Positions 21,350 through 40,676 of a DNA stretch of 64,000 nucleotides are shown here, piece by piece. The notes beneath the pieces are model-generated. The model was not told the origin of the DNA. It worked only from the letters and a program-made list of their open reading frames with translations, and made no database searches. A program made the position numbers and the translations under genes. Origin of the DNA: Escherichia coli (GTDB lineage: Bacteria; Pseudomonadota; Gammaproteobacteria; Enterobacterales; Enterobacteriaceae); the NCBI RefSeq assembly GCF_050920415.1, contig NZ_CP169309.1, one strand, 5' to 3'. Within the stretch, counting starts at the first letter, position 1; the number at the start of each line of letters is the position of its first letter.

Positions 21350-21667
21350 TTATTGCCCAACGGGATAGGCGATAAACAAACCGACAATTGTCAGAATACA
21401 CGCCAGCAGGAATACCAACATACAATTTACGCGCTTTCGCGAAATTTTAAATAAATAGCAAAATAGTGTTGTTACCACGATCACTACCGGGATAGTCATA
21501 AAATTAATAACGATGAGTGCTATCAATCCAAAACTTGCTCCTCCACCGTGGGGAATAAAAATGTGTTCTTCAAAATAAACTTCTATAGCAAATGCCAGCA
21601 CACATCCCAGAAAACTCATATCCAGATGAGGGTGCCATTTACTTTCTTTATTTGATGTGTCTGACAT
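21350..21667 (-). CDS. Small hypothetical membrane protein (about 3 predicted TM helices); accessory relative to K-12
   Basis: 105 aa with hydrophobic stretches (LGCVLAFAIEVYF, FGLIALIVINFMTIPVVIVVTTLF, MLVFLLACILTIVGLFI); visibly AT-rich coding sequence; no counterpart recalled between eutR and hemF in K-12. Confidence 0.5.
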   Translation of the reverse strand: MSDTSNKESKWHPHLDMSFLGCVLAFAIEVYFEEHIFIPHGGGASFGLIALIVINFMTIPVVIVVTTLFCYLFKISRKRVNCMLVFLLACILTIVGLFIAYPVGQ

Positions 21668-21707
21668 TCTTAAATGCTCCCGTGAGCAAACTGGCGCAAA
21701 ATAATTT

Positions 21708-22970
21708 CTAAGATTGCTGATAAGACGTCGCTGTTGTCCGGCACTCCGGGCAGATAAACGCGTAAATTATCCCTTCGCCATATTGTTCAATATCGGCATA
21801 ATCCAGTTGCGCAAGAAACATCATTGTGTGGGAACATTGCGGACAGAGAGGATATTCCGCGTCCTGAATCCAGGTTGGATGCCCGCCAAGTTGCGAGAAA
21901 GAGACAGGTAAAAATGGGTCTGCGGCAAATAACGGTGACCTAAGGTTTCCCTGTCTCATGCTGTTTACAGGGAGTCGACGCCATTCCGATACATCATCCG
22001 GCAGCCAGGCAGGCGGGATATTTTTTGCAGACAAATGAGCGTTACCCTTTGAGTCCATGTAGCCGAAAATGGTGCTGTAGGCGGTGCAACATTCGCAAGT
22101 CACGACGCGAAAACTGCCGTTATCGCTAAGACCCGTTGCCTTCAGGTCAACGTCGAAAAGATTTGTTAGGGGCAATGCGCACTTTGGACAGGTATCGCTG
22201 CGTTCATCAACAACACGCAAAGCTTCGCAAGACCCGGTGCTTTTCATCTCCAGATGAAAACATTGAGGAAAATAGAGATTACGCCTTTGATCTTCAGCGG
22301 TTAACTCCCAACCGGCCTCATGCGCATATTCTTCTGGCGCGATGTAAAGTGAACTGCGCCACAGCGGCGGGTTATTGCGCCAGTAGGCAAAACGTTCAAC
22401 AACAACGTCATCCCCAATCCATGCCAGACATTGCAGAATACAATTTCTGTTTTCTGCATCATCCTCAACCCGTTCTAACAGCGTATCGCGAACATCCGCT
22501 GGGGCGCGGTGGAAAGGCAGAGGAGAATAAGCGTCTAAATCATCATAAGAGATCCACTCTCGTAAATATGCATCCAGATTTGCCTGGGTAAACGCCGCCA
22601 GACAAAGACAAATCTCCTGAGCGTGTTCATATTCACCAGACGCAAAGCGTTCTGTGGCGTAATCAGCCATTTGCTGCGCTTGCTCGGCGGTCAACTGTTG
22701 ATACAGGGCATCGGTGGGAACGGGGCAGGGAGTCCAGTCGATTAACGCATCGAATTTCCGCGGTTGGTGAATTAATTTAAGCATGGCAACCGGATCGCTT
22801 AACCCAGCAAACGCATTCACGATCTTTTTGTTTTTCTTGATATATTCGTCGTGCTCACGCTGCTGTTGGGCCTGCTCGCAGGGCATGCAGTATCCGTTAG
22901 TACGCGCTGCGGTTTCCGGAAGAATGGTTGATGTACAAGCGGGGCTTTTACAGGGAATACGGTGAGTCAT
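21708..22970 (-). CDS. Hypothetical Cys-rich protein with DUF1963/YwqG-like C-terminal signature; accessory relative to K-12
   Basis: 420 aa; several CxxC pairs (CMPC, CPKC, CPQC, CPEC); C-terminal GGHPTWIQDAEYPLCPQCSHTMMFLAQLDY...GIIYAFICPEC resembles the DUF1963 family by recollection. Confidence 0.6.
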   Translation of the reverse strand: MTHRIPCKSPACTSTILPETAARTNGYCMPCEQAQQQREHDEYIKKNKKIVNAFAGLSDPVAMLKLIHQPRKFDALIDWTPCPVPTDALYQQLTAEQAQQMADYATERFASGEYEHAQEICLCLAAFTQANLDAYLREWISYDDLDAYSPLPFHRAPADVRDTLLERVEDDAENRNCILQCLAWIGDDVVVERFAYWRNNPPLWRSSLYIAPEEYAHEAGWELTAEDQRRNLYFPQCFHLEMKSTGSCEALRVVDERSDTCPKCALPLTNLFDVDLKATGLSDNGSFRVVTCECCTAYSTIFGYMDSKGNAHLSAKNIPPAWLPDDVSEWRRLPVNSMRQGNLRSPLFAADPFLPVSFSQLGGHPTWIQDAEYPLCPQCSHTMMFLAQLDYADIEQYGEGIIYAFICPECRTTATSYQQS

Positions 22971-35366: not shown

Positions 35367-36241
35367 TGGCGGAAGTGACACAGTTGAAGCGTTATGACGC
35401 GCGCCCAATTAACTGGGGCAAATGGTTTCTGGTTGGCATCGGGATGCTGGTTTCGGCGTTCATCCTGCTGGTGCCGATGATTTACATTTTCGTGCAGGCA
35501 TTCAGCAAAGGGCTGATGCCGGTGTTACAGAATCTTGCTGACCCGGACATGCTGCACGCTATTTGGCTGACGGTGATGATCGCGCTGATTGCCGTACCGG
35601 TAAACCTGGTGTTCGGTATTCTGCTGGCGTGGCTGGTGACGCGCTTTAACTTCCCCGGACGCCAGTTATTGCTGACGCTGCTGGACATTCCGTTTGCCGT
35701 GTCGCCGGTGGTTGCCGGTCTGGTCTATCTGCTGTTCTACGGCTCTAACGGCCCGCTCGGCAGCTGGCTGGATGAACATAATCTGCAAATTATGTTCTCC
35801 TGGCCGGGAATGGTGCTGGTCACCATCTTCGTGACCTGTCCGTTTGTGGTGCGCGAGCTGGTGCCGGTGATGTTAAGCCAGGGCTGCCAGGAAGACGAAG
35901 CGGCGATTTTGCTTGGCGCGTCTGGCTGGCAGATGTTCCGCCGCGTCACGCTGCCGAACATCCGCTGGGCGCTGCTTTACGGCGTGGTGCTGACCAACGC
36001 CCGCGCGATAGGCGAGTTTGGCGCGGTGTCGGTGGTATCCGGCTCGATTCGCGGCGAAACACTTTCGCTGCCGTTACAGATTGAATTGCTGGAGCAGGAC
36101 TACAACACCGTCGGCTCCTTTACCGCCGCTGCGCTGTTGACGCTGATGGCGATTATCACCCTGTTTTTAAAGAGTATGTTGCAGTGGCGCCTGGAGAATC
36201 AGGAAAAACGCGCGCAACAGGAGGAACATCATGAGCATTGA
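35366..36241 (+). CDS. cysW: Sulfate/thiosulfate ABC transporter permease CysW
   Basis: 291 aa polytopic permease. Confidence 0.92.
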
Positions 36242-37328
36242 GATTGCCAATATTAAGAAGTCGTTTGGTCGCACCCAGGTGCTGAACGATATCTCACTGG
36301 ATATTCCTTCTGGTCAGATGGTCGCATTGCTGGGGCCGTCCGGTTCCGGGAAAACCACGCTGCTGCGGATTATCGCCGGGCTGGAGCATCAAACCAGCGG
36401 GCATATTCGTTTCCACGGCACCGACGTCAGCCGCCTGCATGCACGCGATCGTAAAGTCGGTTTCGTGTTTCAGCATTACGCGCTGTTCCGCCATATGACG
36501 GTGTTCGACAATATCGCCTTCGGCCTGACGGTGCTGCCGCGTCGCGAGCGCCCGAATGCCGCAGCCATCAAAGCGAAAGTGACAAAATTGCTGGAAATGG
36601 TGCAGCTTGCGCATCTGGCGGATCGTTATCCGGCCCAGCTTTCAGGCGGGCAGAAACAGCGTGTGGCGCTGGCGCGCGCGCTGGCTGTGGAACCGCAAAT
36701 TCTGCTGCTTGATGAACCGTTTGGCGCGCTGGATGCGCAGGTGCGTAAAGAGCTGCGTCGTTGGCTGCGTCAGTTGCATGAAGAGCTGAAATTCACCAGC
36801 GTGTTCGTTACCCACGACCAGGAAGAAGCGATGGAAGTCGCCAACCGCGTTGTGGTGATGAGCCAGGGCAATATCGAACAGGCTGATGAACCGGATCAGG
36901 TCTGGCGCGAACCGGCGACCCGTTTTGTGCTGGAGTTTATGGGCGAAGTGAACCGCTTGCAGGGAACGATTCGCGGTGGGCAGTTCCACGTTGGTGCGCA
37001 CCGCTGGCCGCTGGGATACACCCCTGCGTATCAGGGGCCGGTGGATCTCTTCCTGCGCCCGTGGGAAGTGGATATCAGCCGCCGCACCAGCCTCGATTCG
37101 CCGCTGCCGGTGCAGGTGCTGGAAGCCAGCCCGAAAGGCCACTACACCCAATTAGTCGTGCAGCCGCTGGGGTGGTATGAAGATCCGCTCACCGTGGTAA
37201 TGCGTGGCGATGATGCGCCAGTGCGCGGCGATCGTTTGTTCGTCGGGCTGCAACATGCGCGGCTGTATCACGGCGACGAGCGTATTGAAACCCGTGATGA
37301 GGAACTTGCCCTCGCACAAAGCGCCTGA
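36231..37328 (+). CDS. cysA: Sulfate/thiosulfate ABC transporter ATP-binding protein CysA
   Basis: 365 aa; Walker [13 protein letters not shown] signature LSGGQKQR, Walker B LLLDEP. Confidence 0.94.
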
Positions 37329-37404
37329 TAGGTTGAGTGAATGTTAAACGCCCGGAGGCGCTTCCCGCGATCCGGGCTTTTTAATGGCAAGGTTTTGTAA
37401 CCTG

Positions 37405-37441
37405 TAGGCCTGATAAGACGCGTAAACGTCGCATCAGGCAA
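37405..37441. repeat. REP element between cysA and cysM
   Basis: gtaggcctgataagacgcgtaaacgtcgcatcaggca palindrome. Confidence 0.7.
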
Positions 37442-37462
37442 CACCACGTATGGACAGAGATC

Positions 37463-38374
37463 GTGAGTACATTAGAACAAACAATAGGCAATACGCCTCT
37501 GGTGAAATTACAACGAATGGGGCCGGATAACGGCAGTGAAGTGTGGTTAAAGCTGGAAGGCAATAATCCGGCCGGTTCGGTGAAAGATCGTGCGGCGCTT
37601 TCGATGATCGTCGAGGCGGAAAAGCGCGGGGAAATTAAACCGGGTGATGTGTTAATCGAAGCCACCAGTGGTAACACCGGGATTGCGCTGGCAATGATTG
37701 CCGCGCTAAAAGGCTATCGCATGAAATTGCTGATGCCCGATAACATGAGCCAGGAGCGTCGCGCGGCGATGCGTGCCTACGGTGCGGAGCTAATTCTGGT
37801 CACCAAAGAGCAGGGCATGGAAGGTGCGCGCGATCTGGCGCTAGAGATGGCGAATCGTGGCGAAGGCAAGCTGCTCGATCAGTTTAATAATCCCGATAAT
37901 CCTTATGCGCATTACACCACCACCGGGCCGGAAATCTGGCAGCAAACCGGCGGTCGCATTACCCATTTTGTCTCCAGCATGGGGACGACCGGTACGATTA
38001 CCGGCGTGTCGCGCTTTATGCGCGAGCAATCCAAACCGGTGACCATTGTTGGTCTGCAGCCGGAAGAGGGCAGCAGCATTCCCGGCATTCGTCGCTGGCC
38101 TGAGGAATATCTGCCAGGCATCTTCAACGCTTCGCTGGTGGATGAGGTGCTGGATATTCATCAGCGCGATGCGGAAAACACCATGCGCGAACTGGCAGTG
38201 CGGGAAGGGATTTTCTGCGGTGTAAGTTCCGGCGGCGCGGTTGCCGGAGCACTGCGGGTGGCAAAAGCCAACCCCGGCGCTGTAGTGGTGGCGATCATCT
38301 GCGATCGCGGCGATCGCTACCTTTCTACCGGGGTGTTTGGGGAAGAGCACTTTAGTCAGGGGGCGGGGATTTAA
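37463..38374 (+). CDS. cysM: Cysteine synthase B (O-acetylserine sulfhydrylase B)
   Basis: 303 aa; PLP-lysine region NPAGSVKDRAA. Confidence 0.93.
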   Translation: MSTLEQTIGNTPLVKLQRMGPDNGSEVWLKLEGNNPAGSVKDRAALSMIVEAEKRGEIKPGDVLIEATSGNTGIALAMIAALKGYRMKLLMPDNMSQERRAAMRAYGAELILVTKEQGMEGARDLALEMANRGEGKLLDQFNNPDNPYAHYTTTGPEIWQQTGGRITHFVSSMGTTGTITGVSRFMREQSKPVTIVGLQPEEGSSIPGIRRWPEEYLPGIFNASLVDEVLDIHQRDAENTMRELAVREGIFCGVSSGGAVAGALRVAKANPGAVVVAIICDRGDRYLSTGVFGEEHFSQGAGI

Positions 38375-38416
38375 GGATTAATAGCATTGGAGGCTGATGA
38401 CAAACGCAAAACTGCC

Positions 38417-38512
38417 TGATGCGCTACGCTTATCAGGCCTACAAGGTTCCTGTAATATATTGAATTAGCAATATTTTGTAGGCCGAATAAGGCGTTTACG
38501 CTGCATCTGGCA
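38417..38512. repeat. REP/BIME elements downstream of cysM
   Basis: ctgcctgatgcgctacgcttatcaggcctac ... gtaggccgaataaggcgtttacgctgcatctggc inverted pair. Confidence 0.7.
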
Positions 38513-38578
38513 TAAACAAAGTGCACTTTGTCAATAATCTGCTTTGTCGGCAGTTGTTGCTGCCGACAAATGCAGTTT

Positions 38579-39313
38579 TTAATTTTCGTGTGGAAACGTA
38601 GTAAGGTCATCAATCATTTTTTGAAGTATTGGTGAGTCCTGACCATCACCCCATTGAAGAATTTTTGCGGTAAGCTGATGACGGGCTAGTGCATTGAGTC
38701 CCATCTTTTTAAGTTTATGGGAGATTTTACCCATGACTTTAATCTGACCGAATGCAGTTGCGTAGGTAATCATATTGCTCTGGATAGTGCTCATTTCATC
38801 GGCTAGTAATTGCGCACGAATATCCTCTTCAAGAATACTTTCCATAGCGATATATTTCATACCCCAGATAGTTTCAATTAACATTTGAGGGAAATCAGCA
38901 CAATCTAGATCCGGCTCTTTACGCAGGCTATTTTCAAGAACGTTTAGAGCATCAGCACCTTCATCGCTGCCAAAAGGTGATTCTTCATCCCAGCAACACA
39001 CATAAAGTGGATCAGTAAAATGGCACTGGAAGTTTGGGTGTGACGTTTTAACATGTAACCCAATTTCTTCATCATCAAAATAGTAGCGATCCATGTAGTT
39101 AAAGTTTGGATCTTCTTGATAGCCTTTCTTCATTTTTGCGGCAATCAATTTACTGGCTTCTTTCAGACACTGTTCTTCATTATCGAACTCTTTTGTCTGG
39201 AATTTACCAATATTACCTACCTTGCCATAGTTGATAGCTAAACTATCCCCTTCGTAATCTATCCACCAAAATTTATTCGATTTTTCATCGTTATAAATAA
39301 AGCATTTTTTCAT
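38579..39313 (-). CDS. yfeS: WGR-domain protein YfeS
   Basis: 244 aa; N-terminal KFWWIDYEGDSLAINYGKVG (WGR-like); AT-rich gene. Confidence 0.82.
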   Translation of the reverse strand: MKKCFIYNDEKSNKFWWIDYEGDSLAINYGKVGNIGKFQTKEFDNEEQCLKEASKLIAAKMKKGYQEDPNFNYMDRYYFDDEEIGLHVKTSHPNFQCHFTDPLYVCCWDEESPFGSDEGADALNVLENSLRKEPDLDCADFPQMLIETIWGMKYIAMESILEEDIRAQLLADEMSTIQSNMITYATAFGQIKVMGKISHKLKKMGLNALARHQLTAKILQWGDGQDSPILQKMIDDLTTFPHEN

Positions 39314-39345
39314 GTTACCTCCTGTAAATGCCTTGCCAAAGCGGA

Positions 39346-39720
39346 TTAATTCCCTTCCGCAGGCACCGTTTTATCCGTCTGCGCAATTAACGCATGTAAA
39401 AAAGGTTGCGCGTTTTCATCGCTCTTACCGGGCATCTTCACGATATACGGCTTCCCGGTAATCGATGATGACGAAGCAACCTTATCAATAAATTGCTCAG
39501 CAGTATCAATGCGATTACGGGTATTGCCCAGCTTCAGACGCAAATGGGAAACCGCTTCATCGCAGGTATGTTCATCGCCGTTGCGCACAAATATCAAATC
39601 CTTTTTCTGTGCTAATCCCTCCAGCATGGCGTTGATGCGGGCTTCTTCGTGGGCGGTTAACTTCGCGTAAGCGGGGAGTGTCATTAGCAGCGTAATGACC
39701 AGACAAATGATTTTCTTCAT
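39346..39720 (-). CDS. yfeK: Secreted protein YfeK
   Basis: 124 aa; signal peptide [19 protein letters not shown]. Confidence 0.82.
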
Positions 39721-39745
39721 TGAATTACCTTATCCTTGTTTTGTG

Positions 39746-39811
<66 letters not shown>

Positions 39812-39824
39812 GAGAAAAAATTAA

Positions 39825-40676
39825 ATGAGTAGTTTGTTGTTGTTTAACGATAAGAGCAGGGCATTGCAGGCGGATATCGTCGCCGTGCAGTCGCAGGTAG
39901 TGTACGGCAGCGTAGGCAACAGCATTGCCGTGCCTGCTATCAAACAGAACGGCCTGAATGTCTTTGCCGTGCCGACGGTATTGCTGAGCAATACGCCGCA
40001 TTATGACACTTTCTACGGTGGTGCGATTCCGGACGAATGGTTTAGCGGTTATTTGCGTGCGCTTCAGGAGCGTGATGCGCTGCGCCAGCTGCGCGCTGTC
40101 ACCACGGGCTATATGGGAACGGCATCGCAAATCAAAATCCTTGCCGAGTGGCTGACTGCGCTACGCAAAGACCATCCTGACTTATTGATTATGGTCGATC
40201 CGGTGATTGGCGATATTGATAGCGGAATTTATGTCAAACCTGACCTTCCTGAGGCATACCGACAATATTTACTGCCTCTGGCGCAGGGTATTACGCCCAA
40301 TATCTTTGAGCTGGAAATCCTGACAGGTAAAAATTGCCGCGATCTCGACAGCGCCATTGCTGCCGCAAAAAGTCTGCTTTCAGACACATTAAAGTGGGTG
40401 GTGATTACCAGTGCCTCCGGTAATGAAGAAAATCAGGAGATGCAGGTGGTGGTGGTCAGTGCCGACAGCGTGAATGTCATTTCCCATTCACGGGTTAAAA
40501 CTGACCTGAAAGGGACTGGCGACCTGTTTTGTGCTCAGCTTATCAGTGGCTTGTTGAAAGGTAAGGAATTAACTGACGCGGTACATAGCGCGGGATTACG
40601 CGTGCTGGAGGTGATGCGCTATACCCAGCAGTATGGTAGCGATGAATTGATTTTGCCGCCGCTGACTGAAGCATAA
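39825..40676 (+). CDS. pdxK: Pyridoxal/pyridoxine/pyridoxamine kinase
   Basis: 283 aa ribokinase-fold protein; [32 protein letters not shown]... Confidence 0.9.

Follow-up and report, generated by a model that had tools for sequence, protein, structure and literature searches.

The window analysed here is a stretch of 64,000 nucleotides from the chromosome of Escherichia coli (RefSeq assembly GCF_050920415.1, contig NZ_CP169309.1). Over its first 50 kb it differs from NZ_CP169399.1 by three single-nucleotide polymorphisms and is otherwise identical. This report concerns two adjacent minus-strand genes, yfeS and yfeK, and the histories by which they came to lie side by side. Locally, cysP-cysT-cysW-cysA-cysM (plus strand) are followed by yfeS and yfeK (minus), pdxK (plus), and crr-ptsI-ptsH (minus). 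A spacer of 204 bp separates the convergent cysM and yfeS, 32 nt lie between yfeS and yfeK, and the divergent yfeK and pdxK are 104 bp apart (39721-39824). Both genes and their co-regulation by sigma-E are already described in the literature; it is the evolutionary reading that is corrected here. A previous sequence-only reading of this DNA had placed yfeS and yfeK between cysM and pdxK, and its coordinates and identities are borne out by the open reading frames (ORFs), the protein profiles, and the RefSeq annotation (Table 1). YfeK, a small periplasmic protein, matches the DUF5329 profile PF17263 at 108.6 bits (cutoff 27) and the NCBIfam model NF007646 at 279 bits (cutoff 171), and an obvious N-terminal Sec signal peptide of 19 residues, with a lysine after it, can be read from its sequence.

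Table 1. Genes and sequence features of the cysM-pdxK region, with positions in the window. REP, repetitive extragenic palindromic; BIME, bacterial interspersed mosaic element.
Feature	Position	Strand	Basis and remarks
cysM (cysteine synthase B)	37463-38374	+	ORF and RefSeq annotation; stop codon forms the left edge of the insertion site
Direct repeat GGATTAAT, left copy, 8 bp	38375-38382		Left edge of the inserted segment; junctions from alignment to empty-site strains
REP element, forward copy (GCCTGATGCGCTACGCTTATCAGGCCTAC)	38414-38442	+	Sequence; one example match at the REP-type yahH locus
REP element, inverted copy	38478-38512	-	Sequence; BIME-like pair with the forward copy
Hairpin, 16-bp stem	38539-38575		Terminator-like for the plus-strand (cysM) transcript; U-run at 38577-38586
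yfeS, 244 aa	38579-39313	-	ORF; N-terminal WGR domain (residues 1-70) and C-terminal domain (72-244); RefSeq name yfeS
Shine-Dalgarno sequence of yfeS, AGGAGG	39318-39323	-	Sequence; 4 nt upstream of the ATG
Direct repeat GGATTAAT, right copy	39343-39350		Overlaps the yfeK stop codon; right edge of the segment at about 39350-39357
yfeK, 124 aa	39346-39720	-	ORF; DUF5329 profile; RefSeq name yfeK
Sigma-E-type promoter of yfeK, GAAACTT-N16-TCAAA	39754-39781	-	-10 element ends 34 nt upstream of the ATG
pdxK	39825-40676	+	Right flank, divergent from yfeK; ORF and RefSeq annotation

The two genes differ in base composition, which was calculated from the RefSeq gene table, so far as this is applicable to the window, and with sliding windows over the first 50 kb. 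The GC content of yfeS is 0.378, and its GC content at third codon positions (GC3) is 0.343, a z-score of about -3.7 when compared with the remaining genes of the window; for core genes, the means are 0.528 (GC) and 0.573 (GC3). Its choice of synonymous codons is also atypical (z -3.4). No 735-bp stretch of the first 50 kb has a lower GC content than yfeS, and 0.01% of 735-bp windows are equally low. The corresponding values for yfeK (GC 0.475; GC3 0.536, z -0.6) are indistinguishable from those of crr (GC 0.478) and ptsI (0.495), and 14-23% of 375-bp windows have a GC content no higher than that of yfeK. The span of both genes taken as one has a GC content of 0.413, within the lowest 0.7% of the first 50 kb. 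Since GC3 is ordinary in yfeK and low in yfeS, the AT-richness is a property of yfeS alone. Both genes had been called AT-rich from the sequence, with the proviso that GC content and codon usage within the normal range for the genome would speak against a foreign pair; yfeK falls within that range and yfeS falls outside it.

yfeS is an accessory gene. Its DNA is present in 1386 of 5426 complete E. coli genomes (25.5%, a frequency drawn from a biased genome set that includes many K-12 derivatives), and at least 80% of the gene is covered in 1382 of these carriers, with an intact, full-length ORF. A junction probe detects the contiguous empty site in 4039 genomes, and the two classes together comprise 5425 of the 5426. 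In the empty site, the stop codons of cysM and yfeK are 2 bp apart and yfeK encodes 122 residues ending in ..TVPAQ*; next to yfeS, it encodes 124 residues ending in ..TVPAEGN*. Compared with the empty form, the yfeS form carries about 0.97 kb (38375 to ~39350) in place of 7 bp. The last residues of yfeK (..PAEGN*) are thus encoded by the insert, and the sequence held in common with empty-site strains restarts at CGCAGGCACCG. The 8-mer GGATTAAT occurs three times in the 64 kb, and two of these occurrences lie exactly at the two junctions. This arrangement suggests a target duplication or microhomology, and it is recorded as an observation rather than as proof of a mechanism. A precise empty allele was sought with a 97-nt construct joining cysM to the ..PAEGN* form of yfeK; all 4039 empty sites proved to be of the 90-91-bp ..PAQ* type. 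The yfeS allele of the window is rare: an identity of 99% or more is reached by only 11 records over yfeS and by only 17 over 38350-39830.

yfeK is found at this locus in 5425 of the 5426 E. coli genomes, and its surroundings are similar in other enteric bacteria. In an outgroup survey based on a genome scan for YfeK (22 loci), yfeK adjoins cysM in Escherichia sp. E1V33, the GTDB E. coli representative, E. albertii, Pseudocitrobacter, an Enterobacteriaceae metagenome-assembled genome (MAG; UBA5654), Superficieibacter, and Citrobacter (including C. amalonaticus), with pdxK mostly on the other side; in Atlantibacter, pdxK lies between yfeK and cysM. yfeS was not found in these outgroup loci, with the exception of one Pseudocitrobacter MAG. 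A cryptic Escherichia clade is among the relatives that have yfeK beside cysM and no yfeS. In Pseudocitrobacter faecalis, the ..PAQ* junction is the same as that of most E. coli, base for base. Because the outgroups lack yfeS and P. faecalis has this same junction, the empty site is best read as the ancestral state, and yfeK as a vertically inherited gene. Neither atypical composition nor a patchy distribution, two marks of horizontal acquisition, is seen in yfeK. The phylogenetic distribution of the pair, which had been proposed as a check, accordingly splits into a patchy yfeS and a yfeK that is near-universal at the locus.

Both of these marks are found in yfeS, which is atypical in composition, patchy within E. 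coli, absent from sister taxa, and most similar to proteins from distant phyla. In named genomes outside Escherichia/Shigella, the closest YfeS proteins are 53-57% identical and belong to Paenibacillus, Lysinibacillus, Dysgonomonas, and Clostridium; one unplaced metagenomic fragment is 67% identical. A low-GC donor would agree with the GC content of yfeS. In a comparison of the window with K-12, synonymous divergence (dS) is 0.30 in cysA, 0.305 in cysM, 0.265 in yfeK, and 0.257 in pdxK, as against 0.069 in yfeS, and the density of mismatches falls inside yfeS. The same comparison gives 97.1% nucleotide and 95% amino acid identity for yfeS and 94.1% nucleotide identity for yfeK. The exceptional Pseudocitrobacter MAG (contig CAJYVI010000176.1, 4408-5142) carries yfeS at the same junction, with the left junction and the yfeK tail of the window. 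Its nucleotide identity to the window is 95% in yfeS, 89% in cysM, 84% in yfeK, and 69% in pdxK. The cys genes of Pseudocitrobacter are unexpectedly close to those of E. coli (CysM is 97% identical in amino acids, above E. albertii). The shared left junction and yfeK tail, together with the decoupled divergence of yfeS, point to a single insertion that was subsequently carried across lineages and genera; homologous recombination through the flanks is the simplest route. The ratio of nonsynonymous to synonymous divergence (omega) in yfeS is 0.30 between E. coli alleles and 0.14-0.20 against the Pseudocitrobacter allele, values that fit relaxed purifying selection. Horizontal acquisition, which had been proposed for the pair, thus stands for yfeS on composition, on 25.5% presence, on distant relatives, and on decoupled divergence, and falls for yfeK. 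The age ascribed to it is doubtful, as yfeS is essentially un-ameliorated and younger than the flanking alleles.

Candidate vectors for yfeS were considered and set aside. A tblastn match of 72.5% led to NZ_CP098226.1, a 50-kb record labelled as a plasmid, which is a frameshift-ridden copy of the chromosomal ptsI-crr-pdxK-yfeK-yfeS-cysM-cysA-cysW region and probably a mis-assembled or mis-labelled contig rather than a plasmid. Other plasmid matches were to the WGR domain only or to megaplasmid/chromid records. Among phages, the matches were limited to the C-terminal domain at 31% identity in four short, unannotated Listeria phage records and were uninformative.

Expression of the inserted gene appears to depend on its neighbor. 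The motif of the yfeK promoter recurs unchanged in E. coli without yfeS, in K-12, in Escherichia sp. E1V33, in E. albertii, and in UBA5654, and a sigma-E-type promoter is recognizable upstream of yfeK in most of the outgroup relatives read. A terminator scan finds no terminator-like site in the 32-nt spacer between yfeK and yfeS. The one sigma-70-like match in this spacer was dismissed as a yfeS promoter; its -10 element overlaps the start codon. Since the spacer offers neither a terminator nor a usable promoter, yfeS is probably transcribed by read-through from the sigma-E promoter of yfeK, as its published co-induction with yfeK also suggests. Published work places yfeKS in the sigma-E regulon as an operon (PMC2685091, PMC11502571, PMC6850105). 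Both genes rise with rpoE after restriction-induced damage (PMC2685091), and under secretion stress yfeK and yfeS increase by log2 1.7 and log2 0.9, respectively (PMC6850105). Over-expression of yfeK halts growth, over-expression of yfeS has no effect in liquid culture (PMC2685091), and a K-12 yfeS knockout is sensitive to boric acid and partly complemented (PMC11502571).

These observations are best accommodated by two genes with two histories: a foreign insert of about 1 kb carrying yfeS lies behind a vertically inherited yfeK and is probably read through from the sigma-E promoter of the latter. The probability given to this reading is roughly 0.85. The yfeS ORF would have come from outside the Enterobacteriaceae, where its nearest relatives in named genomes are low-GC Firmicutes and Bacteroidetes. 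A segment of about 0.97 kb (roughly 38375-39350), comprising yfeS with its own strong ribosome binding site, the REP pair, and the hairpin, would then have entered by illegitimate recombination between the almost adjoining stop codons of cysM and yfeK, replacing the last two codons of yfeK. REP elements are enterobacterial, which suggests that the segment took its present form in an enteric genome after the arrival of the ORF. Upon insertion, yfeS would have been captured by the pre-existing envelope-stress promoter. Homologous recombination through the conserved flanks may subsequently have carried the segment from one E. coli lineage to another and into at least one Pseudocitrobacter.

Several points weigh against this account. 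The allele expected from a target-site duplication or from repeat-mediated deletion, namely a ..PAEGN* yfeK abutting cysM, occurs in none of the 5426 genomes. No integrase, tRNA, or mobility gene is found in the segment among its ORFs or in the RefSeq annotation. The low mutability of AT-rich third positions may explain part, not all, of the fourfold gap in dS, and the sampling bias noted above bears on the frequency of yfeS.

The sequence-only reading had suggested an alternative, an ancient joint arrival of yfeS and yfeK as one horizontally acquired unit of two genes. The genes are indeed adjacent, co-oriented, and co-transcribed in K-12 (PMC2685091, PMC11502571), and their joint GC content is low. 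This alternative is nonetheless refuted by the presence/absence data: yfeK occurs without yfeS in 4039 E. coli genomes and, at the same locus, in at least seven other enteric genera or species, with synteny across Escherichia, Citrobacter, Superficieibacter, and others. Its GC3 is normal, most relatives in which the upstream region was read keep the sigma-E-type promoter at yfeK, dS is 0.265 in yfeK and 0.069 in yfeS, and yfeS homologues in other phyla are never beside a DUF5329 gene at the eight loci inspected. It has also to be considered whether yfeS could already have been present in the ancestor of E. coli, or of the genus, and been deleted in most lineages, which would make the empty site the derived state. 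Deletion could be mediated by the 8-bp direct repeats at both ends, truncated or partial copies of yfeS exist (H37, P0008, P0026), and two fairly divergent alleles (97.1%) segregate within E. coli. Recombination between the repeats would, however, leave the ..PAEGN* yfeK that is missing from all genomes, while every empty site ends in ..PAQ* exactly as in P. faecalis. Moreover, yfeS is absent from Escherichia sp. E1V33 and other enterics, E. albertii has a different cargo, and the gene is younger than its flanks and un-ameliorated. Ancestry followed by widespread loss is consequently held to be very improbable.

A further alternative grants the insertion and denies it a function: yfeS would be a slowly decaying passenger whose co-expression with the sigma-E regulon is accidental. 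At 0.30, omega is fairly high between the alleles of E. coli, the gene is missing from three quarters of strains, its over-expression has no phenotype in liquid culture (PMC2685091), and some copies are truncated. Decay fits poorly, however, with an ORF that is full-length in 1382 of 1386 carriers, with the lower omega against the Pseudocitrobacter allele (0.14-0.20), with a highly conserved family that keeps 21 invariant alignment columns across phyla, and with the boric-acid sensitivity of the K-12 knockout and its partial complementation (PMC11502571). A functionless yfeS is thus regarded as unlikely.

Under the two-history reading, this locus is a routine small horizontal insertion, and as it stands it matters little. 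Its practical consequences concern the interpretation of K-12 work. About three quarters of sequenced E. coli lack yfeS, so that phenotypes of the K-12 gene, such as boric-acid sensitivity, are not to be generalized to the species. The linkage of yfeK and yfeS is an accident of insertion, and a joint function of their products should not be assumed.

The function of yfeS and yfeK had been called unknown, and that statement is still correct; some features of YfeS can nevertheless be described. YfeS, a cytoplasmic protein, joins a WGR domain to a conserved helical module. The WGR domain (Pfam PF05406) is matched over residues 9-71 at 63.8 bits (cutoff 22). An AlphaFold model built with a 40-sequence alignment has high confidence (predicted local distance difference test 95; predicted template modelling score 0.92). 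The WGR fold, a beta-sheet with a helix, is superposable on that of PARP and matches 2RA8 and PARP WGR domains. The Trp-Gly-Arg signature is lacking, with N-Y-G-K in YfeS and across its family at the position aligned to W-G-R of PARP3. Residues 72-244 are modelled as an all-alpha region consisting of a conserved linker and a helical bundle, for which there is no solved relative and no Pfam model. The invariant residues of the YfeS alignment include D80, T90-S91-H92, Y104, P113-F114-G115, D117, G119, D121, K192, and G195, and the C-terminal domain is recognizable by the motifs TSHP, PFGSDEGxD, and QIKITG. A profile of this domain collects 756 clusters at 50% identity. It occurs as a stand-alone protein of about 175 residues, in fusions to one or two WGR domains, DUF4240, DUF4253, or tetratricopeptide repeats (TPR), and in long multi-domain proteins. 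The C-terminal domain of YfeS is therefore an independent, uncatalogued module. A literature search on the partner domains DUF4240 and DUF4253 found nothing functional, and PADLOC, which identifies anti-phage defence systems, has no match for YfeS or YfeK. Compared with known WGR proteins, such as PARP1/2/3 and Bacteroides fragilis Q64V53 (PDB 2RA8, a WGR domain with leucine-rich repeats), YfeS lacks both the PARP catalytic and regulatory domains and the leucine-rich repeats, has Y-G-K in place of W-G-R, and pairs its WGR domain with a different helical module.

Half of the eight neighborhoods inspected around full-length YfeS homologues are same-strand arrays of small genes with immunity-type families within 6 kb. 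These families are SMI1_KNR4 and DUF1963 at locus L028, a SUKH/Imm51 protein at L030, WapI and Cys_rich_CPCC at L033, and Imm10 and DUF2750 at L034; DUF2750 corresponds to Imm16 (PMC3482391). At L032, the homologue lies in an array of unannotated small genes beside an ankyrin protein. At L031, L040, and L041, it is solitary among housekeeping genes. The homologue of Dysgonomonas sp. 25 (L031, 6001-6732), for example, lies in a trp cluster between an MFS (major facilitator superfamily) transporter gene and genes for IGPS, PRAI, and Trp_syntA, so that here, too, the gene looks like a solitary insertion into a housekeeping operon. No DUF5329 gene was found beside yfeS homologues of other phyla at the eight loci. 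The arrays bear some resemblance to the orphan immunity genes and heterogeneous polyimmunity loci of polymorphic toxin systems (Zhang et al. 2012, PMC3482391), in that Firmicute YfeS homologues occur in small-gene arrays with SUKH/SMI1_KNR4, Imm51, Imm10, Imm16, WapI, and DUF1963; the C-terminal domain also occurs in long multi-domain proteins similar to polyimmunity proteins. Unlike such loci, the E. coli yfeS is solitary, and half of the sampled neighborhoods have no association of this kind. The YfeS family is not among the immunity (Imm) families described in the polymorphic-toxin survey, which makes no mention of WGR, DUF1963, or YwqG (PMC3482391).

A tentative proposal, offered with limited confidence, is that YfeS binds a partner, either as an immunity-like, neutralizing protein or as a sensor of a ligand or nucleic acid, and is not a housekeeping enzyme. 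Several findings weigh against this proposal. Four of the eight homologue neighborhoods are housekeeping or uninformative, neither yfeS in the window nor its homologues at the eight loci have a toxin-like gene beside them, PADLOC has no match, and the invariant polar residues (D80, T90-S91-H92, Y104, D117, D121, K192) would be more typical of a ligand site or an enzyme than of an immunity protein that evolves fast. The narrower version, in which the C-terminal domain would define a new family of immunity or neutralizing proteins against inter-bacterial toxins and the E. coli copy would be wired to a sigma-E promoter, is speculative and rather doubtful. If true, it would make yfeS an orphan immunity gene that is switched on when the attack of a competitor breaches the envelope. 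YfeS might instead bind nucleic acids or nucleotides as a stress factor, or be a small enzyme, with a WGR domain recognizing DNA or RNA ends as in PARPs and a TSHP/PFGSDEG pocket that binds or processes a ligand in envelope or DNA-damage stress. The many invariant polar residues, the joint induction with SOS and sigma-E genes when restriction attacks the chromosome (PMC2685091), and the several homologues alone among housekeeping genes (e.g., in a trp operon) speak for such a role; the Y-G-K in place of the W-G-R signature and the lack of any Pfam match for the C-terminal domain or any PADLOC match speak against it. A binding factor or enzyme of this type is possible, and the chances assigned to it are low. 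What the partner-binding proposal and its variants leave is a modest lead: a C-terminal domain with no family model, in neighborhoods that hint at inter-bacterial conflict.

Beyond the coding sequences, the inserted segment contains the REP pair and the hairpin. The REP elements form an inverted pair of imperfect palindromes that fit the REP consensus, are repeated genome-wide, and lie 3' of genes; a query containing them has a median of 19 matches in each E. coli genome. Rfam gives weak, sub-threshold matches at 38435-38548 to the REP-derived families ES036 and naRNA4 and nothing else in the span. Both REP elements and the hairpin lie within the cysM-yfeS spacer, 3' of yfeS and thus on one side only. 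In the divergent promoter region between yfeK and pdxK, no REP element and no terminator was found, so that the pair is not bracketed by REP elements and a terminator, as had been supposed. The folding energies of the hairpin are -26.2 and -24.5 kcal/mol for the two strands, with z-scores of -7.3 and -7.9. A U-run follows it on the plus strand only, and the terminator scan calls the plus strand only; on the minus strand the sequence after the hairpin is GCAGAUUAUUGAC, which has no good U-run for yfeS. The hairpin looks like an intrinsic terminator of cysM. Of the strong bidirectional terminator described earlier, the strength is real, and the structure is bidirectional merely as a hairpin. In empty-site strains, a candidate terminator hairpin at the 3' end inside yfeK was rejected as no better than shuffled sequences (z -1.3).

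The hairpin also distinguishes alleles of the spacer. In K-12 and in alleles of the enterotoxigenic E. coli (ETEC) type, a 16-bp deletion removes its left arm (window 38535-38550; about 2680-2700 of the K-12 locus extract). The sequence left by this deletion, GCAACAACTGTTAAA, is a MarA site identified by chromatin immunoprecipitation sequencing in the yfeS><cysM spacer of ETEC H10407 (PMC5684230). In the window's allele, the strong hairpin is intact and there is no marbox-like sequence. The K-12 yfeK-yfeS operon (b2419-b2420) is like that of the window in locus, gene order, and promoter motif, and unlike it in that the window has a rare allele with the intact 16-bp-stem hairpin in the cysM-yfeS spacer.

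Different DNA occupies the same junction in related species. E. albertii carries an unrelated 1.8-kb insert of two genes (L008, 4415-5794), one of which has a weak DKNYY match. The 3.8-kb insert of Citrobacter sedlakii (L014, 4431-8142) encodes two large proteins with N-terminal hydrophobic stretches, one of them with TPR matches, and Superficieibacter electus has about 0.5 kb of different DNA (L015, 4367-4894). In E. albertii and S. electus, the species in which the 3' end of yfeK was read, its C-terminal tail also differs. The junction of the cysM and yfeK stop codons is thus a recurrent landing site, or hot spot, for foreign DNA in enteric bacteria. In its general form, the yfeS insertion is like the small islets found at convergent gene ends and REP-containing intergenic regions of enterobacteria, with a single strain-variable cargo gene of atypical GC content, a REP/BIME pair, no mobility genes, and different cargo at the same site in related species. 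It is unlike them in having overwritten the 3' end of a core gene and in apparently placing its cargo under the sigma-E promoter of yfeK, so that the cargo would not have come as a complete transcription unit of its own. The surrounding core block (36231-40676; cysA, cysM, yfeK, and pdxK) is unusually divergent among strains, with nucleotide identities of 91-95%, as compared with about 99% in the adjacent ptsI; this suggests a region of elevated recombination or diversity around the insertion site.

A second accessory insert lies elsewhere in the window, between eutR and hemF (21350-22970, minus strand). It encodes a 420-residue DUF1963-domain protein and has a low-GC (0.384) ORF of 105 residues, and it is present in only 28 of the 5426 complete E. 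coli genomes. DUF1963 is also one of the families seen beside YfeS homologues in Paenibacillus. Toward its right end, the window departs from the closest complete genome at 50235, the site of an IS2 insertion in that strain. Low-GC stretches at about 57.1-58.7 and 62.7-63.5 kb correspond by position to the vgr/DUF4123/PAAR (type VI secretion) cargo genes of the closest genome.

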